From Prevotella sp. (lineage in GTDB: Bacteria; Bacteroidota; Bacteroidia; Bacteroidales; Bacteroidaceae), in contig JAILFH010000037.1 in assembly GCA_024697645.1 (NCBI GenBank), forward strand, positions 7,338 to 71,337: DNA of 64,000 nucleotides, read 5' to 3'. This document shows, one piece after another, positions 29,351 to 42,048 of this stretch (within the stretch, counting starts at the first letter, position 1; every line of letters starts with the position of its first letter). Under the pieces are notes generated by a model. The model was not told the DNA's origin and ran no database searches. It saw only the letters and a list, made by a program, of their open reading frames with translations. Made by a program: the position numbers and the translations under genes.

Positions 29351-32300
29351 ATGAAAAACTATTTACTAAACAAACCCAAATGGCTTGTATGGGTTGCAGC
29401 ATTTATAATGTCTGCCCTAACACTCCCACTACAAGCACAAAACGTGACCATTAAGGCCACGAATGGTAGTACTATTGCTGCCGTGAAACAAGGTGGTACG
29501 ACAGACTCTTTCTTTGCAGCAGGTGGTTTTGCAACTTGGCAACATGAACAATTGGCTATGGTGCTGACGGTCTCTGACGGAACTGCCCTGACACCTAACG
29601 GACAATTGGACAACCCTGCCAACAACCTCTTTACAGATGGAAGTTACGTGCAGATTGCCAAAGGTCGCGCCGATGGTGCAAATGTTTGCTATGTGTCACT
29701 GAGTTTGCCCAGTGGTTATCGTTTCACAGGTTATGAGATTAGTTTTAACAAACCATCTGATGTGTCCAAGGGAAGTGACATCTCTTTCAACACAAGTTAT
29801 ACCGAATCAACCTTTGGTGAGACAAACAGCACATTTGACACATACGCTACTTCTGCCTCAATTTATACTGGAGGAACAGCACAGACCATCTCCCGTACTG
29901 AGATGACCGAAGGCGAAATGAGTAACATTCTCTACTTCAAGTTAGAGAATCCTTCTAACAGACGCGCCCTGATTAATTTATTAAGCGCAGAGTTCTTCTT
30001 TACAGCCGAGGAAAGTTACACTCCTGTTATGCCAACAACTTCTGTGACATCTGTTAGCGCGGTAGACATTCCTTTCTCAACCAGTAAGGTAGACTATGGA
30101 AGTGTTCAAAACCGCTCATATACAATCAATGGCAGAACATATAACCGAATTAGCTACAGCTCTGCCAACGTGACTGACCTCTCTGCCAACTTCGTATTAT
30201 ACGAAGCCGAATCTATTGAAGATGGTACAGACATTGATGAAGTTCCTGGTAAAGTCGTGAAATACGATGCTGGAACTATTTCATCTGCAGGAGGATTCTT
30301 CAAATTGGGCCGTGAGAGTCAGGAGCAGATTTATTATTTAGAAACTCCTACTTTTGTTACTTTGTCCGATGGTACTAAGAATCCAGTGGGCTATCGTATT
30401 ACTGGTGCAGAGTTTGAATATAGTAGTTCATCTACATCAGGTGAAAATTCTTTCTACATATCATGTACATATAACGGTACGGTATATTATTTGAATACGG
30501 AAGGCCGTTTCACTACTACCCCAGTAGTCTGGGAAATTGATAGCGAGGGATACATTTCCAGCTCTGGCAATTATATTTATTGGAATAATAACTATGTAGC
30601 AACACAGACTACAAAGCCCGGTTCTTCTGAAAGATTTACCATTGCAGATAATGGACGTATTTATCAAACAGAATACACTAGGTACTATATTCGTTTCTAT
30701 GCTCAAGGTGACACTTATTATGGTTTAATAACTAATGATAATTATGGTGAATATGCAATAGCTGAAGAGATTCCTGTAACAAACGTTGGTGATTATACAC
30801 TTAAAATTTATGATAAGACAGGTACCACCTCTCAGAATATCACTGTGAACAGTGAGAACCCAAGTGGCAAGGTAAGCCTTACGGGTCTGAACAACGACGC
30901 TGTGAAGTTTGGCGTACAGGGTATTGGTCTTGTTCGCGCCACACTCACTTTACAGGCTCTCGACCCCTACCTCGACCATATGTCAGTAGTATGTCAGGAT
31001 AAAGTACAGACGGAGATTCGTCTGAGTCAGACTTTTACAGCAAGTGACTTCAGTGTTAGTGGTGGTGAGTTCTACTTCTACCTCCCCACCGATTGTGCTG
31101 GACATTCAGTTGCTATTACCTTCGAAGATCTCCAAAGTAAGTATTTCGATGAAACTTATACGGGCGGCAGCAGCAATCATACTTCGCGCATCAATTTTGT
31201 GAAGTCGGATCACTATAATGCCTTTGGTGCCTCACAAAACAAACTATATAATGATGTAGACGAGGCAGCCAATGCTCAGTTGGAACGACTGAAGGTAGGT
31301 ACTGTGGGTACTGCAGCATTCAAGTTTAACAATGCCGATGAGGTGGGTACCTCGGGTGGTACGCTTACTGAATACCCCTTCTCACTGGAGAATTATGCCG
31401 CTGCTCCTAACAATGGTGAGTTTACCAACATGGGATTCACCGTGTCAGAAGAAGATCAGAGCCTGACTCGTTACGTCTTCACTACAGACGAAACACGCTA
31501 CAACATTGCTCCTACAACAGCAGTTCAGCATCGTGCGTATGCCTTCTATGAGATGATTGTTCACGTGCAGACACAGACTTATGAGCCGAAGGTTAAATTC
31601 ACAAAGATTTACGACCCAACCCTCTATGGTACTGGCCAGACCGATGCTTTCTATGGCGCTAAGGTGACGGCCTATGATGGCAACACGCCTCCAAGGGCTG
31701 GTTACTCATCAACTACAGAGATCTTCAAGCACATTTCTAATGCCATTAAGAATGGTGTTGATGACTTCGGTAACACCGATGTGCCCAGCGATTCAAAGTA
31801 TATCCTCTATCTTGACTTTAGCGAGATGGCTGGTATCTATCAGACCACAGATTCCGAGCATGGTTCTATGGAAGACTTCTCGGCCACCAATGCCAAGAAT
31901 TGCCTAATTTTCATCCCAGTTGGTGCTTCTGCTCCGAACAACAATGTTGCCTATAAGATGGAGTCTGGTGGTTTCCACGCCGCACACGACATCGTGCTGA
32001 CAGACAAGGAACCATTCTATTCTCCTTACGACATCACCGTAGATGCAGCAAACAAGATTACATATAGCCGTCTGATTTCCAAGGATAGTTATGGTAAGGT
32101 TCAGAATGCTTCACTGATTATGCCATTCGCAGTTTCAGTTGACGGCGGTACGCACACCAACATCGACGGTTCAACCTTCTCATTGCACTATATGCAAGAA
32201 ACGGCAGCCCTGACTCAGATTGAAGGTAAAACCTATGCCTACTTCCCTGCTTTAGTCGATGTTACTACAACTAAGGCCAATACTCCTTATCTCGTGCAAC

Positions 32301-32833
32301 TGACTAAGAACAGCAGCGAAGATGGCGTTTCATTCGTCGTTACCCAGCCTGGTACAACCATCAAGGCTACTTCTGGAATGGGCAGTGATTACACATTCAC
32401 TGGTGCTACTTCAACAGGAACTGCTACTGAGGGAGACGCAGAGGGAACATACAACTTCACGAGTAAGGGAACCTACGCAGGTGCTAAGATTCCAAAAGCC
32501 GACAATGTATTCTACTTCGCAAAGAACCAGTTCGTGAATTCCGGTAATTTGGCCGAAGGATACAACTATGCTAACATTGCACCGTTCCGCGCTTACTTCG
32601 CCACATCGTCTTCTGGTGCTAAACTTTCTGCCTTCGATATCATCTTCGGTGAAGGTCAGGGCGACGTTCCGACAGGAATTCAGGCTGTTGATGCATCACA
32701 GTTCATCGATGTCAACGCACCTGTCTACGACCTGCAGGGACGCATGGTAGCACCTGCTTATCGCGAATTGGCTAGTAAGAAGTTGCAGAGTGGACTTTAC
32801 GTAGTTAACGGAGTAAAAATCATGATAAAGTAA
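29351..32833 (+). CDS. Module 1 large secreted protein with T9SS-type C-terminal domain, function unknown
   Basis: Signal peptide ..LPLQA/QNVTI; PFRAYF; CTD TGIQAVD..VYDLQGRMV..SGLYVVNGVKIMIK; paralogous to 33724 and 38314. Confidence 0.85.
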   Translation: MKNYLLNKPKWLVWVAAFIMSALTLPLQAQNVTIKATNGSTIAAVKQGGTTDSFFAAGGFATWQHEQLAMVLTVSDGTALTPNGQLDNPANNLFTDGSYVQIAKGRADGANVCYVSLSLPSGYRFTGYEISFNKPSDVSKGSDISFNTSYTESTFGETNSTFDTYATSASIYTGGTAQTISRTEMTEGEMSNILYFKLENPSNRRALINLLSAEFFFTAEESYTPVMPTTSVTSVSAVDIPFSTSKVDYGSVQNRSYTINGRTYNRISYSSANVTDLSANFVLYEAESIEDGTDIDEVPGKVVKYDAGTISSAGGFFKLGRESQEQIYYLETPTFVTLSDGTKNPVGYRITGAEFEYSSSSTSGENSFYISCTYNGTVYYLNTEGRFTTTPVVWEIDSEGYISSSGNYIYWNNNYVATQTTKPGSSERFTIADNGRIYQTEYTRYYIRFYAQGDTYYGLITNDNYGEYAIAEEIPVTNVGDYTLKIYDKTGTTSQNITVNSENPSGKVSLTGLNNDAVKFGVQGIGLVRATLTLQALDPYLDHMSVVCQDKVQTEIRLSQTFTASDFSVSGGEFYFYLPTDCAGHSVAITFEDLQSKYFDETYTGGSSNHTSRINFVKSDHYNAFGASQNKLYNDVDEAANAQLERLKVGTVGTAAFKFNNADEVGTSGGTLTEYPFSLENYAAAPNNGEFTNMGFTVSEEDQSLTRYVFTTDETRYNIAPTTAVQHRAYAFYEMIVHVQTQTYEPKVKFTKIYDPTLYGTGQTDAFYGAKVTAYDGNTPPRAGYSSTTEIFKHISNAIKNGVDDFGNTDVPSDSKYILYLDFSEMAGIYQTTDSEHGSMEDFSATNAKNCLIFIPVGASAPNNNVAYKMESGGFHAAHDIVLTDKEPFYSPYDITVDAANKITYSRLISKDSYGKVQNASLIMPFAVSVDGGTHTNIDGSTFSLHYMQETAALTQIEGKTYAYFPALVDVTTTKANTPYLVQLTKNSSEDGVSFVVTQPGTTIKATSGMGSDYTFTGATSTGTATEGDAEGTYNFTSKGTYAGAKIPKADNVFYFAKNQFVNSGNLAEGYNYANIAPFRAYFATSSSGAKLSAFDIIFGEGQGDVPTGIQAVDASQFIDVNAPVYDLQGRMVAPAYRELASKKLQSGLYVVNGVKIMIK

Positions 32834-32846
32834 GGAGGAAAACGAT

Positions 32847-33035
32847 ATGAAAAAAGTGTATATTAGTCCCGCTATTGAAATCGTCGCCTCACGACTGAAT
32901 CAACAAGTAATGCAAGGTCACAGTTTTGACTGGGCCGACGCCAAGGGAGATCCCATGGGCGGAGGCGGCGGTGGCGGAATGGTCATCACCAACGGCCAGA
33001 TGGAAGGTTCAAGCCCCAACATCTGGGAAGATTAA
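32847..33035 (+). CDS. Module 1 Gly-rich peptide with MKKxYxxP leader (62 aa)
   Basis: GGAGG 8 nt upstream of ATG; conserved in three copies with an in-frame indel. Confidence 0.8.
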   Translation: MKKVYISPAIEIVASRLNQQVMQGHSFDWADAKGDPMGGGGGGGMVITNGQMEGSSPNIWED

Positions 33036-33058: not shown

Positions 33059-33340
33059 ATGCGCGACAAAGCATTTCTCATCCTATGCACACTGCTGCTG
33101 ATACTGCTGTTCTTCTATTCTTCATCGAATGACGACAGTATTGCATCACCAGACATGCCCAGTGCCAACAATACGTCGTGGTTCGACCGACTTCTCGGTA
33201 ACGATGACGAGACCGCCGGCTTCGGTGAAGCAGGAGGTGGCGGCGGAGGGTTCTTCTTCAGTTCTTTCTACGGAGGAGTGGAGTTTCGCTTCAAGGTGAA
33301 GGACTACCGTGCATGGAACGACGACGATTTGTCGGAATAG
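33059..33340 (+). CDS. Module 1 single-TM Gly-rich microprotein (93 aa)
   Basis: Three copies differ mostly at synonymous sites; ATG at 33059. Confidence 0.8.
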   Translation: MRDKAFLILCTLLLILLFFYSSSNDDSIASPDMPSANNTSWFDRLLGNDDETAGFGEAGGGGGGFFFSSFYGGVEFRFKVKDYRAWNDDDLSE

Positions 33341-33357
33341 ACAAACTATACAAATGC

Positions 33358-33397
33358 AAGGAGCGGTGGGCCATTAGGCTCGCCGCTCTTTCTGTTT
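33358..33397 (+). terminator. Module 1 intrinsic terminator
   Basis: gagcggtgggcc-atta-ggctcgccgctc then tttctgttt. Confidence 0.8.
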
Positions 33398-33723: not shown

Positions 33724-36700
33724 ATGAAAAATTATTTACTAAACAAACCCAAATGGCTTGTATGGGTTGCAGCATTTTTGATGTCTGCCCTTACACTCCC
33801 ATTACAAGCCCAAAACGTGACGATCCGCCCGGACAATGGTAGCCTTATTACTGGTCAGGCTGGTGGTAACACCGGAGACTCAGGTATTGGAAGAGGAATG
33901 TCTTCCATGTGGCGTCATGAGCAATTGCCCTTGATGATGACCACATCTGACATTGCCAACCTCACATCTGCCGGAGAACTGGCAGACCCCTCATGTGCTA
34001 TCGATGTGTACAATGGAAATCTGATCATTGGTGCTGGTCAGACTCAGACTTTCATGGTTGTGTCCTTGCCCAAAGGTTACCGCATCACTGGTTACACGCT
34101 GGTATTGCAGCCAAATGTCTATGGTAACAATATCCAGTTACATACTGGTAAGGATTCTTGGAATATCGGAACAGATGATCAGATGAGTTTCTATGAGACT
34201 CCTGCTTGGAGTTCTGGTAATCCATATATTAGACCTAATGGCACTGGCAATGACCTCAATACACATTGTACTTTGTTGGATCTTGACGAATATGATTATT
34301 CATACTATGCTGTTGCCACCGCCTCTGATGGCAGCACTGTAATGCAAAACAACAATGCAACTAACAGAGCCAAGGAATTTGTCATTTCACGTACCAGCCA
34401 GACTGAGACTGATATGACCAACCAACTTCACTTCTTCTTCGCCAGAGCATCAAGTCAATATGCTGTCACCATCAAGTCGTTTGAAATTCAGTTCACGGCT
34501 GAGGGAACTTTCAATGCAGAATTGACTCCTTCTGCTTCCGGACCGGCTGTTAGTATGGTTCAGTCCCCATTCTCAACAAGTAAGATGGATGTAGGTGCCA
34601 TAACCCTACAAAACGGCCTCTATACTTATGACTATACTGGTGTACGTGACCTTATTGCCTACAACTGGATATACCAAGACGATGCTATTAATGCAGGTAA
34701 GCCAGCCGATGTAGCAGTTAATAAGAATATTTATCCTGTTGTGGTTGACGGGAAGGGAGTATTTGCCTATGGTAATGACACCTATTTCGTTGAACCGCCC
34801 ACCACGATTACAACTGCTTCTGGCTGGGAATCACCCATTGGTTTCAGAGTTGTTGGCGCCCAGTTCGACTATCAGTGGGGTACACAAACAGCAGGTGGAA
34901 CCGTAACAATCGCGAATGGATACCGGATATCGGTAACACGGGATGGTACCACGTATTATTTGAATGACAATTTGGATTTCGTTAATGTCAATCAGAATAA
35001 TGCATTCGTATGGCAGATGGACGATTTAGGCAATCTCTATACTGGTACTGATTATAAAAGATACCTTGCCTGCTTTGGTAGTGGTAATGAGCGAGTACTC
35101 TCTTTAGGTTCTGCTGCATCTGGTGCCGAGGCAACTTGGAATCTGAGGGTAGCCGACAATGGTGATGTTTATTATCTTAGCGATGGTGGCAATACCTATT
35201 ATCTAAACTATCACTACATTCAGGAAGGATCAGCCTATCACTTAAGAGGCTATGTTACGAATGGTGCTACTACAAATCTGGCAACTGCCACTTCAACAGG
35301 TGGAACACATTCTGTTGAAGTACCTTCATTTACTCCTGGCGCCTATACGCTGAAGATATATGGTACAGATAAGAATACCGTGGTTAAGACTGTTACAGTA
35401 AACAGTGCCGCCGATGCAGGAACCTATCAACTGCTTGGTATTAACAACGATGCCGTGAAGTTTGTAATTGAAGGTCTTGAGGGAAACACTCAGGCCTTGG
35501 TGAATGTTTCATTGCAGTTGGAGGCTTTGGATCCTTATATTAACAGTATGGATATTGTCTGCCAAAGTGAGAAGGATGCCCAAGGCAAGCAACTGGAACT
35601 CATCCAGACGTTCACAGCCAATGACTTCTCAGTGAGTGGCGGTAAGTTCATCTTCTATATTCCGACGGACTATAGCAATCATGATTTAACCTTCACCTTC
35701 CGCGACCTCTTCAGCCAATATGGTGATGTAACCTATGGAGGAACAGGCAATGCACGCTATAGTTTTGTAACATCGCCATACTTTGAAACGGTTGATGGTA
35801 ATGGTGATAATGGTCTGTACGATTCAGGCTATGATCCAAATCATGCTTGCACAGATAAGATCTACACGGGAGTGGCTGGTAACATCCGCTTCAAGTTCAA
35901 CAACGCGGAAGAACTTACAGGCAGCGGTACTGGTACGAAAACACTGCAGGAGTACCCATTCTCTGTGTCAACTTATCTCGGCTCTACTGACCCCGATGGC
36001 AGTAGCAAGACCGGAGCGTTTTCAGATATTGTTATGAATGCCTCTAAGGAGGATCAGAAGAGTGGTATATATTATGTGTTTACTGCTGATGAAACCCGTT
36101 ACAATATTGCTCCCACAACTGCACTGGAGCATCGTAGTTACGCATTCTATCGCATGGATATTGAATTGGTTGCAAGACAATATACACCAAGTTTAGAGTG
36201 GAAAAAAGTCTATGATGTGACTTGCTATGCTGACCAGGATGAATCCGGCAAGGATATCGAAGCCAACAAGTCGATGTGGGGATTAACCCTGAGAGCAAAG
36301 GATACAGATGGTACTTATCCGGAAAGCGGCGGTTACCTTTCTGTAAAGGAGATTATGGATGCCTTCAATGGAGTTGAGACTCAGGCTCATGATGGTCCTA
36401 CCATTGGACAAGAAGGTGCCCCAGAATCGGCAGACCAGATTCTCTATGTTGATGGTAGCCTGTTGTCTACAATAGTTGCTAGTTCAGGTTACGATTTGGT
36501 AAGTCTGAGAGACGCACTTGCAAAGAATGTGCTGATCTACTTGCCGGAGAACATGACCTCGACAGCCGACAACTTTGCCTATAAGACAGCAAGTGGTTCG
36601 TTCATGGCAGGTAAGAACATTGTACTGACCGACCGCAAGCCTTTCTATGCTCCCTATGATATTCAGGTGCAGGCTGCTCCTAACAACATCACCTATACCC

Positions 36701-37461
36701 GCGATATCACTTGGCAGACCAATGGTCAGGTTACCAATGCTTCTATCATCGTTCCGTTCGAGATTGCAGTCGATGCAAATGGCGTGCATAGTGACAGTGA
36801 TGGCAATAAGTTCTCCGTTCATCAGATTCAGACTTCTGGTAGTTGTTTGAGCAATAACCCACTTACAGAAGACGACTATATCCACGTGCTCCCGCTTGTA
36901 GGCATGACGAAGACTGTTCCTAATGTTCCTTATGTTGTGAAAGTTGAAAGCGTGGCATCTGCCACGGGATCTACTCCTTCATTCATAGTGAAACAGACAG
37001 GTGCTCTGCTGAAGGCCACCAGTGGTATGGACGCCAACTATGAGTTCGCTGGAACTGCTGGTACTGGTATTGATGACAAGTCTTCAGTAACCTTCACTCC
37101 CACGGGTTCATTCTCAGGAAAGTTGCTTGCCAAGGCCAGCAATAACGTCTACTATTTCGCACACAATATGTTCCTTGACATTCAGACTCTGAACAGGGCT
37201 AATCTGTACGTTTACCCATTCCGTGCTTACTTCAGAACTAGTGGCGGTTCTAGTGCTAAGAGTCTGAACATCTTCTACGGAGAGAATTTCGACACAACGG
37301 GCATTAATACCGTTGAGGAAGAACCTGTAATGGTAGACCCGAATGCACCGGTCTATGATATTTACGGACGTATGGTTGCGACCACTGTTCGCGAGATTGC
37401 CGGCAAGAATCTGCCACGAGGCATCTATGTAGTTAAGGGTATTAAGTTTAATGTTAAATAA
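33724..37461 (+). CDS. Module 2 large secreted protein with T9SS-type C-terminal domain, function unknown
   Basis: Signal peptide nearly identical to module 1; PFRAYF; CTD TGINTVE..VYDIYGRMV..RGIYVVKGIKFNVK. Confidence 0.85.
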   Translation: MKNYLLNKPKWLVWVAAFLMSALTLPLQAQNVTIRPDNGSLITGQAGGNTGDSGIGRGMSSMWRHEQLPLMMTTSDIANLTSAGELADPSCAIDVYNGNLIIGAGQTQTFMVVSLPKGYRITGYTLVLQPNVYGNNIQLHTGKDSWNIGTDDQMSFYETPAWSSGNPYIRPNGTGNDLNTHCTLLDLDEYDYSYYAVATASDGSTVMQNNNATNRAKEFVISRTSQTETDMTNQLHFFFARASSQYAVTIKSFEIQFTAEGTFNAELTPSASGPAVSMVQSPFSTSKMDVGAITLQNGLYTYDYTGVRDLIAYNWIYQDDAINAGKPADVAVNKNIYPVVVDGKGVFAYGNDTYFVEPPTTITTASGWESPIGFRVVGAQFDYQWGTQTAGGTVTIANGYRISVTRDGTTYYLNDNLDFVNVNQNNAFVWQMDDLGNLYTGTDYKRYLACFGSGNERVLSLGSAASGAEATWNLRVADNGDVYYLSDGGNTYYLNYHYIQEGSAYHLRGYVTNGATTNLATATSTGGTHSVEVPSFTPGAYTLKIYGTDKNTVVKTVTVNSAADAGTYQLLGINNDAVKFVIEGLEGNTQALVNVSLQLEALDPYINSMDIVCQSEKDAQGKQLELIQTFTANDFSVSGGKFIFYIPTDYSNHDLTFTFRDLFSQYGDVTYGGTGNARYSFVTSPYFETVDGNGDNGLYDSGYDPNHACTDKIYTGVAGNIRFKFNNAEELTGSGTGTKTLQEYPFSVSTYLGSTDPDGSSKTGAFSDIVMNASKEDQKSGIYYVFTADETRYNIAPTTALEHRSYAFYRMDIELVARQYTPSLEWKKVYDVTCYADQDESGKDIEANKSMWGLTLRAKDTDGTYPESGGYLSVKEIMDAFNGVETQAHDGPTIGQEGAPESADQILYVDGSLLSTIVASSGYDLVSLRDALAKNVLIYLPENMTSTADNFAYKTASGSFMAGKNIVLTDRKPFYAPYDIQVQAAPNNITYTRDITWQTNGQVTNASIIVPFEIAVDANGVHSDSDGNKFSVHQIQTSGSCLSNNPLTEDDYIHVLPLVGMTKTVPNVPYVVKVESVASATGSTPSFIVKQTGALLKATSGMDANYEFAGTAGTGIDDKSSVTFTPTGSFSGKLLAKASNNVYYFAHNMFLDIQTLNRANLYVYPFRAYFRTSGGSSAKSLNIFYGENFDTTGINTVEEEPVMVDPNAPVYDIYGRMVATTVREIAGKNLPRGIYVVKGIKFNVK

Positions 37462-37476
37462 GGGAGGGCCACTCAT

Positions 37477-37662
37477 ATGAAAGCAGTTTATCAGAAGCCG
37501 CTCACAGAAGTGGTAGAATATAAGAACGAGAAGTTTTTCATGATTCAGTCGTACGATCACGCTGACTCTAAGGGCTATCCCATGGGCGGAAGCGGTGGTG
37601 GCGGCATGGTCATCACCAACGGCCAGATGGAAGATTCCAGTCCCAACATCTGGGAAGATTAA
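37477..37662 (+). CDS. Module 2 Gly-rich peptide with MKAxYxxP leader (61 aa)
   Basis: GGAGG 9 nt upstream; C-terminal half nearly identical to copies 1 and 3. Confidence 0.8.
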   Translation: MKAVYQKPLTEVVEYKNEKFFMIQSYDHADSKGYPMGGSGGGGMVITNGQMEDSSPNIWED

Positions 37663-37685
37663 CAACTCTAAAACATTGAGTGTCT

Positions 37686-37967
37686 ATGCGCGACAAAGCA
37701 TTTCTCATCGTGTGCACACTGCTGCTGATACTGCTGTTTTTCTATTCTTCATCGAATGATGACAGCATCGCATCACCAGACATACCCAGTGCCAATAACA
37801 CGTCGTGGTTCGACCGACTTCTCGGCAACGATGACGAGACCGCCGGCTTCGGTGAAGCAGGAGGTGGTGGCGGAGGGTTCTTCTTCAGTTCTTTCTACGG
37901 AGGAGTGGAGTTTCGCTTCAAGGTGAAGGACTACCGTGCGTGGAACGACGACGATCTGTCGGAATAG
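37686..37967 (+). CDS. Module 2 single-TM Gly-rich microprotein (93 aa)
   Basis: 10 synonymous versus 2 replacement codon differences to copy 1 (hand count). Confidence 0.8.
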   Translation: MRDKAFLIVCTLLLILLFFYSSSNDDSIASPDIPSANNTSWFDRLLGNDDETAGFGEAGGGGGGFFFSSFYGGVEFRFKVKDYRAWNDDDLSE

Positions 37968-37984
37968 ACAAACTATACAACTGC

Positions 37985-38024
37985 AAGGAGCGGTGGGCCA
38001 TTGGGCTCGCCGCTCTTTCTATTT
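37985..38024 (+). terminator. Module 2 intrinsic terminator
   Basis: gagcggtgggcc-attg-ggctcgccgctc then tttctattt. Confidence 0.8.
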
Positions 38025-38313: not shown

Positions 38314-41300
38314 ATGAAAGCATCTTTACAAAACAAACCCAGTTGGTTTGTATGGGTTGCGGCATTTGTAATGTCCGCTTTGGTTCTACCTATACAAGCC
38401 CAAAATGTGACTATCAGTCCGAAAACGGGTAACCTCGTTGCTGCTGTGACAGAATCGCAGGAAACTGGTTTCGCGTCTGGTTATTCTTCTTTGTGGCGTC
38501 ATGAACAATTGGCGTTGACAATGGTAACTGCCGACAAGCCCGACCTAACAGAAAGTGGAGAAATAGCCGTACCTTCTGCCGACATCAGCACCTACAACGA
38601 CAATTTGATTCTTGTAGGCGGTATGGCTAGAAATATGTTCATCACTGTTACCCTTCCCAAAGGATATCGGTTCACAGGCTATAAACTCGTTCTCAGGGAC
38701 GACTTAAGAAGCAATCCCGATGTGACTGTGACTAAAAACAACACGGCTCACATGCTTGATGCTTCATCTGTTCTCCGATTCTATGAGACTGAAGCATGGG
38801 AAGAGGGTGTGAATATGGATCAGGGCGACCAAGTGCTTACTGATTACAATGCTGTGGCCACATCTGACACTGACGGTGACATCGCGATTGACGGAACAAC
38901 AGGAGAGACTTTCACCATTGAGCGCACAAGTCTGACGGAAGACGACATGAGCAACCAACTCTATTTCCGAATGACTCGTACAGCAGAATACTACGGTGTA
39001 ACTATCCAGTCATTCGAAATCTTCTTCACCGCAGAAGGAACCTTCACTGCCAATGTGCAGCCCACCTCTACAAACTCTACAGCAGTCAGCATGGTGAAGT
39101 CAGGATTCAATACCAGTAAGATTGATATTGGTGAACTTACTGCTCACACGAAAGATGGAGCAACATACTATAGTTTCGACTATGAGGAAGTAAAGGACCT
39201 CATAGCCTACAACTATCTCTATCAAGATGATGCTGTAGAGGATGGTGCACCTGCTGATGTAGCAACAACGAAGAACATCTACGAAATGCAGGTGAATGGC
39301 AACTATTATTATGGTTTGAAAAACGATACCTATTTCGTCGAGACTCCTGTTGAAATTACCAACTCGAGTAATAACGAGGTTCCCATCGGTTACCGCATCG
39401 TAGGCGCTTTCATCAATTATGCCTATGCTGACGGCACTACACCAGAAGAGTACACCATCAACGTCTATGACCGAACGGGCAAAACTGTCCAAAAGACAAT
39501 AACCGTGAATAGCAGTAATGCTTCTGGTAGTTACGATTTAGGACTAATGAACAACGATGCCGTTAAATTTGCCATCGATGGTGTCGACACTGGTGTCGCA
39601 TTGGTAACTATCGACCTGATGCTTCAGGCACTCGATCCCTACATTGACAAGATGGATATTGTGTGCAGTGATGGAAATGAATTGAGTCTTACAGAATCAT
39701 TTACTGCAGATGACTTCTCAGTGAGCGGTGGTGTATTTGAATTCTATGTACCTGAGAAGTATAAAGATGTTGACTTAACCTTCACCTTCTCAGATCTTTA
39801 TAGTAAGTACGGCGACGAGACATACTATGATGGAACTGGTCATGGTGCTGGCCGTTACAGTTATGTAACATCCGAATATTTCGTCCCTATCGATGGCGAT
39901 GGCGATAATGGGCTCTATGATAGTGCTTATAGTCCCGATGCCGACTATACAACGAAAGTCTACACTTCTGTTGCAGGTGACAAGGCATTTAAATTCAACA
40001 ATGCTGAAGACTTGAGCAATACGGGTAGCGGTACTGCAAGTGCACTGGAAGAATATCCATTCTCCGTTGCCACCTATACTGCTGCTGTTGCAGATGGCGG
40101 TACGGGCGGTAGTTTTGTAAAAGTCGTTCTGAATGCTTCTGGAAAAGATACCGACGAGATTAAGAGTTCAGGAACCTATTACGTGTTCACTGCCGATGAG
40201 ACCCGCTGGAACATTGCTCCGACAACTTCCTGGCAGCATCGTTACTACGCTTATTACACGATGGTTATCAACCTGAAGGCCAAGACCTTCGATCCTGTTC
40301 TAACATGGACGAAGATCTATGACAATACATTGTATAAGGACAATGGAACAGTAGCCACCAACAGCATGTGGGGTCTGACATTGGGAACAATCGATCATGA
40401 TACACAGGAATCCATGAAAGGTTACTTGATGACAGATGAAATCCAAACTGCCATTGCTGCTGAGATTGCTGACGAAAACATAGAAACACCCGATACTGCA
40501 ACTCAGATTCTTTACATTGATGCAAGCAACCTGTCTTCTGTTATCTCTACTTCAACAACTACGCTTGAGAACTTAAAAGATAGTCTTGCTACGAATGCCT
40601 TGTTCTATCTGCCCCAGAGCACGACATCAACACTCGACAACGTTGCTTATATGACTACGAGTGGAACATTCCGTGCAGGTAAGAATATTGTACTAACTGA
40701 CATGAATCCTTTCTATGCACTTTATGATATCCAAGTTGATGCAGCCAACTATGCATCCTACAAGCGCCAGATTACAAAGGATAGTTATGGTAAGGTTCAG
40801 AATGCATCGTTGATTATGCCGTTTATCGTTGCGGTTACCGACGGTACTCACACCAACATCGATGGTTCAACCTTCTCTTTGCACTATATGCAGGAATCGG
40901 CTGCACTGACTCAGATTGGTGGTACAACCTATGCTTACTTCCCCGAATTAGTCGATGTGACTACATCTACAGCCAACACTCCTTATCTCGTACAACTGAC
41001 GGAAAACAGTTCTGAAGATGGAATTTCATTTGTTGTAACGCAGAAAGGTACACTCATCAAGGCTACCACAACAATGGATGAAGCAGACTACACCTTCACT
41101 GGCGAGACCTCAACTGGAACTGCTACCATAGATGAAACTGAGGCTACATACACCTTCACGAGTAAGGGTACCTACGCTGGTGCACAGATTGCAAAGGAAG
41201 AGAATGTATTCTACTTCGCAAAGAACCAGTTCTACAATTCTGGAGACTTAGTCAGCAGTTACAGTTATGCTAACATTGCACCGTTCCGTGCTTACTTCAC

Positions 41301-41538
41301 TTCGGCATCGAGTAGCACCACTGCTAAACTCTCTGCCTTCGACATCATCTTTGGTGAAGGTCAGGGAGACGTGCCGACAGGCATTCAGGCCGTTGATGCA
41401 TCACAATTCATCGATGTAAACGCACCTGTCTATGATATGCAAGGCCGTATGGTTTCTCCCACTTATCGTGAGTTGGGTAGTAAAAATCTTCAAAAGGGCT
41501 TCTATGTAGTTAACGGAGTTAAATTCATTGTAAAGTAA
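38314..41538 (+). CDS. Module 3 large secreted protein with T9SS-type C-terminal domain, function unknown
   Basis: Signal peptide ..LPIQA/QNVTI; C-terminal ~250 aa nearly identical to module 1. Confidence 0.85.
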   Translation: MKASLQNKPSWFVWVAAFVMSALVLPIQAQNVTISPKTGNLVAAVTESQETGFASGYSSLWRHEQLALTMVTADKPDLTESGEIAVPSADISTYNDNLILVGGMARNMFITVTLPKGYRFTGYKLVLRDDLRSNPDVTVTKNNTAHMLDASSVLRFYETEAWEEGVNMDQGDQVLTDYNAVATSDTDGDIAIDGTTGETFTIERTSLTEDDMSNQLYFRMTRTAEYYGVTIQSFEIFFTAEGTFTANVQPTSTNSTAVSMVKSGFNTSKIDIGELTAHTKDGATYYSFDYEEVKDLIAYNYLYQDDAVEDGAPADVATTKNIYEMQVNGNYYYGLKNDTYFVETPVEITNSSNNEVPIGYRIVGAFINYAYADGTTPEEYTINVYDRTGKTVQKTITVNSSNASGSYDLGLMNNDAVKFAIDGVDTGVALVTIDLMLQALDPYIDKMDIVCSDGNELSLTESFTADDFSVSGGVFEFYVPEKYKDVDLTFTFSDLYSKYGDETYYDGTGHGAGRYSYVTSEYFVPIDGDGDNGLYDSAYSPDADYTTKVYTSVAGDKAFKFNNAEDLSNTGSGTASALEEYPFSVATYTAAVADGGTGGSFVKVVLNASGKDTDEIKSSGTYYVFTADETRWNIAPTTSWQHRYYAYYTMVINLKAKTFDPVLTWTKIYDNTLYKDNGTVATNSMWGLTLGTIDHDTQESMKGYLMTDEIQTAIAAEIADENIETPDTATQILYIDASNLSSVISTSTTTLENLKDSLATNALFYLPQSTTSTLDNVAYMTTSGTFRAGKNIVLTDMNPFYALYDIQVDAANYASYKRQITKDSYGKVQNASLIMPFIVAVTDGTHTNIDGSTFSLHYMQESAALTQIGGTTYAYFPELVDVTTSTANTPYLVQLTENSSEDGISFVVTQKGTLIKATTTMDEADYTFTGETSTGTATIDETEATYTFTSKGTYAGAQIAKEENVFYFAKNQFYNSGDLVSSYSYANIAPFRAYFTSASSSTTAKLSAFDIIFGEGQGDVPTGIQAVDASQFIDVNAPVYDMQGRMVSPTYRELGSKNLQKGFYVVNGVKFIVK

Positions 41539-41551
41539 GGAGGAAAACAAT

Positions 41552-41743
41552 ATGAAAAAAGTGTATATTAGCCCCGCTATTGAAATCGTCGCCACACAAC
41601 TGAATCAGCAAGTAATGCAAGACGGCCACAGTTTTGACTGGGCCGACGCCAAGGGTGATCCCATGGGCGGAGGCGGAGGTGGCGGCATGGTCATCACCAA
41701 CGGACAGATGGAAGGTTCAAGCCAAAACATCTGGGAAGATTAA
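41552..41743 (+). CDS. Module 3 Gly-rich peptide with MKKxYxxP leader (63 aa)
   Basis: GGAGG 8 nt upstream; one-codon insertion relative to copy 1. Confidence 0.8.
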   Translation: MKKVYISPAIEIVATQLNQQVMQDGHSFDWADAKGDPMGGGGGGGMVITNGQMEGSSQNIWED

Positions 41744-41766
41744 CAACTCCAAAACATTGAGTGTCT

Positions 41767-42048
41767 ATGCGCGACAAAGCTTTTCTCATCGTGTGCACAC
41801 TGTTGCTGATACTGCTGTTCTTCTATTCTTCATCGAATGACGACAGCATCACATCACCAGACATACCCAGTGCCAACAACACATCATGGTTCGACCGACT
41901 TCTCGGCAACGATGACGAGACCGCCGGCTTCGGGGATGCAGGAGGTGGTGGCGGAGGGTTTTTCTTCAGTTCTTTCTACGGAGGAGTGGAGTTTCGCTTC
42001 AAGGTGAAGGACTACCGTGCGTGGAACGACGACGATTTGTCGGAATAG
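41767..42048 (+). CDS. Module 3 single-TM Gly-rich microprotein (93 aa)
   Basis: 10 synonymous versus 2 replacement codon differences to copy 2 (hand count). Confidence 0.8.
   Translation: MRDKAFLIVCTLLLILLFFYSSSNDDSITSPDIPSANNTSWFDRLLGNDDETAGFGDAGGGGGGFFFSSFYGGVEFRFKVKDYRAWNDDDLSE

Follow-up and report, generated by a model that had tools for sequence, protein, structure and literature searches.

The question raised by this locus is what three very small genes, each located directly behind the gene of a large secreted surface protein in a Prevotella, could encode, and by which enzymes their products could be processed, as their N-termini resemble RiPP leaders and no modifying enzymes are encoded nearby. 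The stretch of DNA that was analysed (the window) comprises 64,000 nucleotides of Prevotella sp. (assembly GCA_024697645.1, contig JAILFH010000037.1, positions 7,338 to 71,337). The region of 29.3-42.1 kb of the window holds three tandem modules of three genes each, with the following features:

29351-32833, + strand: cargo gene 1 (1160 aa from the signal-peptide Met), with a signal peptide, a pre-CTD PFRAYF...AK..F..GE..TGI motif and a T9SS type-A-like C-terminal domain; its stop codon lies 13 nt before sORF 1
32847-33035, + strand: sORF copy 1 (62 aa), putative LppA-like precursor, with a YxxP leader (Y5, P8), a GHS patch at residues 24-26, a Gly-rich/acidic core and a C-terminal NIWED
33059-33340, + strand: 93-aa microprotein of module 1, with an N-terminal TM helix, a poly-Gly run and a VEFRFKVKDYRAWNDDDLSE tail; it starts 23 nt after sORF 1 and is followed by a GC-rich hairpin plus T-run at 33358-33388
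33724-37461, + strand: cargo gene 2 (1245 aa), same architecture, with a sub-threshold Por_Secre_tail match (17.5 bits)
37477-37662, + strand: sORF copy 2 (61 aa); the N-terminal half has diverged, whereas the 3' half is nearly identical in DNA to copies 1 and 3
37686-37967, + strand: 93-aa microprotein of module 2, with a terminator-like hairpin at 37985-38018
38314-41538, + strand: cargo gene 3 (1074 aa), same architecture, with a sub-threshold Por_Secre_tail match (20.8 bits)
41552-41743, + strand: sORF copy 3 (63 aa), with one extra in-frame GAC (Asp) codon relative to copy 1
41767-42048, + strand: 93-aa microprotein of module 3

The gaps between cargo gene and sORF are 13-15 nt, and those between sORF and 93-aa gene are 23 nt. 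The hairpin is found only after the third gene of a module (in modules 1 and 2), from which co-transcription of the three genes is inferred. The sORFs start with MKKVYISP or MKAVYQKP, carry SFDWADAKG or SYDHADSKG, and continue with PMGG(G/S)GGGGMVITNGQME(G/D)SS(P/Q)NIWED. There is no hydrophobic Sec-type segment. These properties, including the extra codon of copy 3, agree with the original prediction in every sequence detail. AlphaFold2 predicts no fold, as expected for a precursor peptide: the mean pLDDT is 66 and the pTM is 0.21, and only the first 20 residues, which are modelled without helix or strand, reach about 80.

The sORFs are real genes. All copies are intact, and in comparisons with distant paralogs and metagenome relatives the dN/dS is 0.10-0.33 with saturated dS. 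The genome holds 13 family members, and two unrelated metagenome contigs carry the same arrangement of cargo end, sORF and 93-aa gene. A word-based homolog search with one sORF found only 4 clusters, but a profile of 18 members, searched against 1.84 billion representative proteins, finds 843 proteins at E<=1e-3, all being 54-75 aa long and matched over their full length. The family as a whole comprises peptides of 46-75 residues, and neither the sORFs nor the 93-aa protein and the cargo proteins gave a usable match in Pfam and NCBIfam scans. One relative is named 'toxin PIN' in NCBI, which a 61-aa disordered peptide cannot be. Within the window, the 3' halves of the three sORFs, the spacer and the 93-aa gene are nearly identical in DNA, and the apparent conservation between the three copies is therefore inflated by gene conversion or recent duplication. 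Readthrough or frameshift fusion of cargo and sORF is rejected, because the frames differ, the spacing in the genome varies from -4 to +59 nt, and each sORF has its own ATG.

The anatomy of the family was derived from 150 representatives anchored on the Tyr. The start reads M-K-K-x-Y-I-x-P-(E)-h-E-V/I-V/I, with Y and P invariant in 149 of 150 members, and the residue two positions after P is T/I/V/L/M in 91%. The window copies read Y5-I-S-P8-A-I and Y5-Q-K-P8-L-T. Fifteen to twenty residues after the Tyr comes h-h-(L/A/M)-(A/G)-(S/G)-S, which is followed by a D/G/E/S/N-rich segment having almost no Cys (7 of 150 members have any Cys in the core). The C-terminus is (N/S)-(V/I/L)-W-(D/E)-(D/E), often followed by a second Trp, and this motif is found in 137 of 150 members.

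The large proteins have signal peptides that are evident by eye, and they end with VYD(L/M/I)(Q/Y)GRMV...G(L/F/I)YVV(N/K)G(V/I)K(I/F)(M/I/N)(I/V)K. Their assignment as T9SS cargo is suggested by sub-threshold matches only (PF18962 17.5-20.8 bits against 27; TIGR04183 12-13 bits against 23), together with a CTD HMM built from this genome, which groups them with 76 ORFs ending in GIYIVNGKKVVIK; a PDB sequence search of the cargo gave no hit. The genome has PorL/GldL. All 12 sORFs of this genome with readable context lie -4 to +59 nt behind a signal-peptide protein that ends in such a T9SS type-A-like domain, and in other genomes of the bacterial family 20 of 26 recognisable sORFs do the same. 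Further relatives follow a C10-peptidase/LRR protein and an uncharacterised 941-aa protein. Of the about 76 CTD-type ORFs of the genome exactly 12 carry a sORF, and these 12 all have a (F)RAY(F/L)...AK..F...GE.T(G)I motif just before the CTD. About six other cargos have the motif without a sORF, and none of the 58 cargos lacking the motif has a sORF. The sORF is therefore tied to one class of cargo, and not to T9SS in general. This genome-wide link was not seen in the original prediction. The 93-aa membrane protein accompanies only the poly-Gly/(M/Q)VI(T/E)NG subfamily.

The contig of the window has no match to PqqD, radical SAM, C39 peptidase or lasso B2 protease, and none to the cluster-type ABC exporter or NTP_transf_5. 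Elsewhere, however, the genome encodes a single PqqD/RRE match, on the contig here labelled C67 (74792-75064; PF05402, 45.7 bits). A single-sequence PDB search with this protein gave no hit, but its ortholog profile best matches the lasso and LPP RREs TfuB1 (8.7e-7), PbaB1 (8.7e-4), TbiB1 and LppB (9x8z, 0.016). It is the last gene of an operon, in which the preceding gene (C67:75106-75666) encodes a 186-aa soluble signal-peptidase-like protein with invariant GxSMxP, HRI and GDG motifs. The profile of this protein matches signal peptidase I, SEC11A/C and LexA, with His at the position of the catalytic Lys of SPase I, as in SipW/Sec11-type enzymes. The first gene (C67:75696-76619) encodes a 307-aa P-loop protein with an invariant Walker A motif (SGTGKST), whose AlphaFold2 model (pLDDT 95) has the PEPCK/HPr-kinase fold in Foldseek comparisons (E 1.7e-7 to 1e-4). 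Its NCBIfam matches to HprK_rel_A (TIGR04352) and ScmC (TIGR04249) are weak (E 4e-4 and 9e-5; 19.5 and 21.9 bits against cut-offs of 200 and 125), and the cassettes described by these models are themselves uncharacterised and have other partner genes. An MsbA-like exporter ortholog (contig C54:38852-40582; 35-41% identical, about 300 bits) and an NTP_transf_5 homolog (contig C71:2046-3191) lie elsewhere in the genome. The latter is only about 25% identical and sits among glycosyltransferase genes, so it may be unrelated.

The kinase, peptidase and PqqD genes and, with less certainty, the dispersed exporter and NTP_transf_5 genes correspond to the parts of the linear polyphosphorylated peptide (LPP) clusters lppA-K-B-S-D-N of Bacillota (Popov et al., Nat Commun 2026, PMC13381572). 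In this pathway the precursor LppA carries a YxxPxVLxHQxIxFETxxS leader, of which Y-16 and P-13 are bound by the RRE LppB; the SipW-like Ser/His/Asp peptidase LppS cuts after T-1, and only when LppB is present; and the HprK-like kinase LppK poly-phosphorylates core Ser3. An MsbA-like exporter and an NTP transferase complete the cluster. The LPP clusters often lie in capsule loci, and some of the Bacteroidales clusters likewise lie in polysaccharide loci next to a Wzc-like kinase. Bacteroidota are not mentioned in that study, and literature searches on T9SS small ORFs and on Bacteroidales RiPP mining did not mention this family or cluster. Only the YxxPxh part of the LppA motif is shared by the sORF family. 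HQxIxFET is absent, and the family instead has E-h-E-V-V followed by the hydrophobic A/G-S/G-S patch, with the conserved Ser at Y+19/20, whereas Ser3 of LppA is at Y+18. The conserved acidic C-terminus of the family also differs from the C-termini of LppA, which are described as highly variable, and in this genome the 13 precursors are dispersed and the enzyme genes are split over three contigs. The paeninodin-type phosphorylated lasso peptide clusters (PadeK/ThcoK kinases) have, as is inferred for the present system, a YxxP/WxxP leader recognised by a discrete B1/PqqD RRE, an HprK-like kinase phosphorylating a Ser of the precursor, and an NTP transferase and exporter as accessories (PMC13381572, PMC7533575). 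However, the genome has no lasso B2 transglutaminase-type protease (PF13471), a signal-peptidase-like enzyme would take the protease role, and no lasso cyclase gene was seen in the cluster maps inspected, although the cyclase family itself was not searched. The products are therefore expected to be linear, and the class is LPP-like, not lasso.

The link between the sORFs and these enzymes rests on homology and on sister taxa. In Prevotella-type loci the trio of kinase, peptidase and PqqD genes sits beside rpoD, and only 3 family peptides were found in 1.43 Mb across 80 such loci, such that processing in this genome would have to occur in trans. In the sister-taxon genome G189, however, a family peptide directly precedes NTP_transf_5, kinase, peptidase, PqqD and ABC genes; in G129, two tandem peptides follow PqqD, NTP_transf_5, ABC, kinase and peptidase; and in a Muribaculaceae MAG (L104) the order is peptide, lipoprotein, kinase, peptidase, PqqD, NTP_transf_5. 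In such relatives the in-cluster NTP_transf_5 (PF14907, 139 bits) and exporter (ABC_membrane plus ABC_tran) are recognised by profile. In 80 metagenome loci of this cluster type (0.67 Mb) there are 14 family peptides, of which 11 or more lie in the same transcription direction within the cluster of K/S/B/N/D genes. For comparison, this sORF-rich genome has 13 in 3.5 Mb and the family-wide sample has roughly 0.2 per Mb, but the pipelines differ and this comparison is rough. One cluster pairs such a peptide, having a Cys-rich core, with a radical SAM enzyme. A reciprocal test, which avoids circularity, is in agreement with this link: an HMM built only from 15 cluster-embedded peptides that are not behind T9SS genes was searched against all 15,914 small ORFs of this genome, and its eight best hits are all T9SS-linked family members, including the three window copies at E = 4.9e-4, 2.4e-3 and 3.6e-3. 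The PqqD ortholog is also present in 59 of 60 sORF-positive genomes, against 104 of 141 sORF-negative genomes (p = 8e-6). Within T9SS-positive genomes the figures are 55/56 against 76/86 (p = 0.05), which is borderline, and as the counts are uncorrected for phylogeny, this pattern is consistent with the model but not decisive.

The best-supported interpretation, which is held with moderate confidence in the absence of expression or chemical evidence, is that the sORFs encode intrinsically disordered precursor peptides of an LPP-type RiPP pathway, processed in trans, such that one enzyme set would serve about 13 dispersed precursors. Processing in trans is also one of the two possibilities that the original prediction had raised. 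It is inferred that the N-terminal KxYxxPxhEhh strand docks as a β-strand on the PqqD-type RRE, as LppA does on LppB, and that the RRE presents the peptide to the adjacent cytoplasmic peptidase. Cleavage would fall near the conserved patch 18-20 residues after the Tyr (in LppA the cut is at Y+15/16), and the conserved Ser of this patch is the prime candidate for phosphorylation by the adjacent kinase. More weakly, it is inferred that the MsbA-like exporter ortholog exports the product, and the NTP_transf_5 protein may decorate it.

Several features are not predicted by the LPP model, namely the conserved hW(D/E) C-terminus, the narrow length range, the 93-aa membrane protein, and the constant pairing with genes of exported proteins, which is also seen in cluster-linked loci, where the peptide is next to a T9SS cargo (3 loci) or immediately upstream of a lipoprotein gene (10 loci). 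The pairing and the conserved C-terminus suggest that the product works at the cell surface or with the partner protein. Together, these features also keep alive a less likely alternative, in which the peptide is an unmodified accessory of its cargo, binding the FRAYF-type pre-CTD module or part of the export machinery through its N-terminal β-strand and its C-terminal motif and acting as a holdase, docking adaptor or regulator, with the resemblance to RiPP leaders being due to shared ancestry or convergence. The strict association with motif-bearing cargos and the physical separation of trio and sORFs in Prevotella favour this alternative. However, the peptide has no signal peptide whereas the cargo folds outside the cytoplasm, so that a direct partnership needs an export route, which in practice brings back the ABC exporter of the cluster. 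It also does not explain why the same leader sits inside the K/S/B/N/D clusters, including the one with a radical SAM enzyme, and as 64 of the 76 CTD proteins lack a sORF, the peptide is not a general T9SS factor. Docking of the leader or peptide on the large protein, which was also raised in the original prediction, is neither shown nor excluded.

The other alternatives are very unlikely. A different RiPP chemistry encoded elsewhere in the genome (lasso, or radical SAM/SPASM cross-linking such as Lys-Trp or Trp cross-links) could be considered, since YxxP-type leaders are shared by lasso and many RRE-dependent pathways, the cores contain a conserved Trp and often Lys, and one cluster-linked relative has a radical SAM partner. 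But there is no lasso B2 protease and only one PqqD/RRE match, core Cys residues are rare in the family, and the radical SAM genes inspected are housekeeping genes, such as a MiaB-like gene next to MsbA on contig C118. Export as unmodified bacteriocin- or signal-like peptides with a double-glycine-type leader is superficially suggested by the resemblance of the conserved patch to a GG/GA/GS cleavage site and by the small, acidic peptides lacking a Sec signal. In the genome, which is 92% complete, no C39 peptidase domain (PF03412) was found, the cluster exporters are 500-560 aa without a peptidase domain, and in our reading the spacing of hydrophobic and acidic leader residues does not fit the double-glycine consensus. 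That the ORFs are chance ORFs or remnants carried along by duplication of the cargo cassette is the least likely possibility; the near identity of the 3' halves could be cited for it, but it is contradicted by the dN/dS values, the always open reading frames and the uniform length of the 843 representatives.

It is also possible, although this remains speculative and rather doubtful, that the peptides are not free natural products but dedicated partners of the co-encoded surface proteins. One cytoplasmic kinase/peptidase/RRE set would then mature a dozen cargo-specific phosphopeptides, which would be exported and would bind, or become attached to, the FRAYF-type module in front of the sorting domain, or fimbrillin-like lipoproteins in other Bacteroidales. 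This would couple a RiPP pathway to surface-protein assembly or anchoring, and would also explain why the 'orphan' trio next to rpoD is kept in most Prevotella-group genomes.

The trio is present in 163 of 201 sampled genomes of this bacterial family, but in Prevotella it has no obvious substrate. The sORFs, which are mostly missed by gene callers and family databases, are a concrete candidate for this substrate, with about 13 per genome. If this interpretation is right, the LPP class extends from Bacillota to the dominant gut and rumen Bacteroidota, with a trans-acting architecture of many precursors per enzyme set, and a RiPP-type pathway is linked for the first time to type IX secretion cargo and surface lipoprotein genes, which gives a handle on the still unknown biological role of LPPs.

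Each sORF of the three modules is followed by a gene for a 93-aa microprotein, which has a TM helix, WFDRLLG, a poly-Gly run and VEFRFKVKDYRAWNDDDLSE, and the segments of the window considered here are the following:
33059-33340, 37686-37967 and 41767-42048: the 93-aa microprotein genes
32832-32846, 37462-37476 and 41539-41551: the regions upstream of the sORF start codons
32940-33060, 37567-37687 and 41648-41768: the regions compared between the three modules
about 32560-32680, and the equivalent place in the other cargos: the pre-CTD motif

The 93-aa microprotein occurs only in these three modules of the genome, but it recurs as a 93-aa or 83-aa gene after sORFs of the same poly-Gly/(M/Q)VI(T/E)NG subfamily on the metagenome contigs L122, L123 and L127. 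Its acidic, Trp-containing tail resembles the C-terminus of the sORFs. When the three modules are compared, they are found to be nearly identical in DNA from the PMGG codons through the stop, the spacer and into the 93-aa gene, whereas the 5' half of sORF copy 2 has diverged strongly. This is a recombination or gene-conversion mosaic. A Shine-Dalgarno-like AAGGAGG or AAGGGAGG lies 8-10 nt upstream of each sORF ATG, which is unusual for a Bacteroidota genome, where SD-led initiation is thought to be rare.

The pre-CTD motif, '(P)FRAY(F/L)...AK..F..(I/L)..GE..TGI', marks all 12 sORF-linked probable T9SS cargos of the genome and about 6 cargos without a sORF, whereas the 58 CTD proteins without the motif never have a sORF. 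The domain to which this motif belongs has no Pfam match. Elsewhere in the same genome, two proteins encoded downstream of sORFs (contig C120, 11346-12590 and 17458-19887) end in repeated dockerin-like segments (DVNGDG(R/E)(I/V)TIADVTALVN(I/Y)(I/L)L), which is unexpected in a Prevotella. A 61-aa family member (protein P0171, loci L124-L126), found behind a 1,930-aa Inhibitor_I69/Peptidase_C10/LRR_5 protein, is named 'toxin PIN' in NCBI/nr, and this is almost certainly a misannotation.

The kinase-peptidase-PqqD operon of the genome lies directly downstream of an rpoD-like sigma-factor gene and a 197-aa secreted Lys-rich protein (contig C67, 76619-78097), and the same secreted protein is also found upstream of the trio in loci L083 and L087. 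In locus L146 (1484-3168), a peptide with the same leader but with a Cys-rich core (MEVKKKFEKPQMEVVKLKPAGMVCASCSTHCGGDGCMFYDPDCTYD) is followed by a 445-aa radical SAM enzyme and then by the HprK-like and PqqD genes, and this looks like a hybrid cluster. In loci L168, L197 and L040, LPP-like clusters or peptides sit inside polysaccharide loci, directly after a Wzc-like tyrosine autokinase with a GYGYGY tail, which parallels the capsule-locus location of the LPP clusters of Bacillota.
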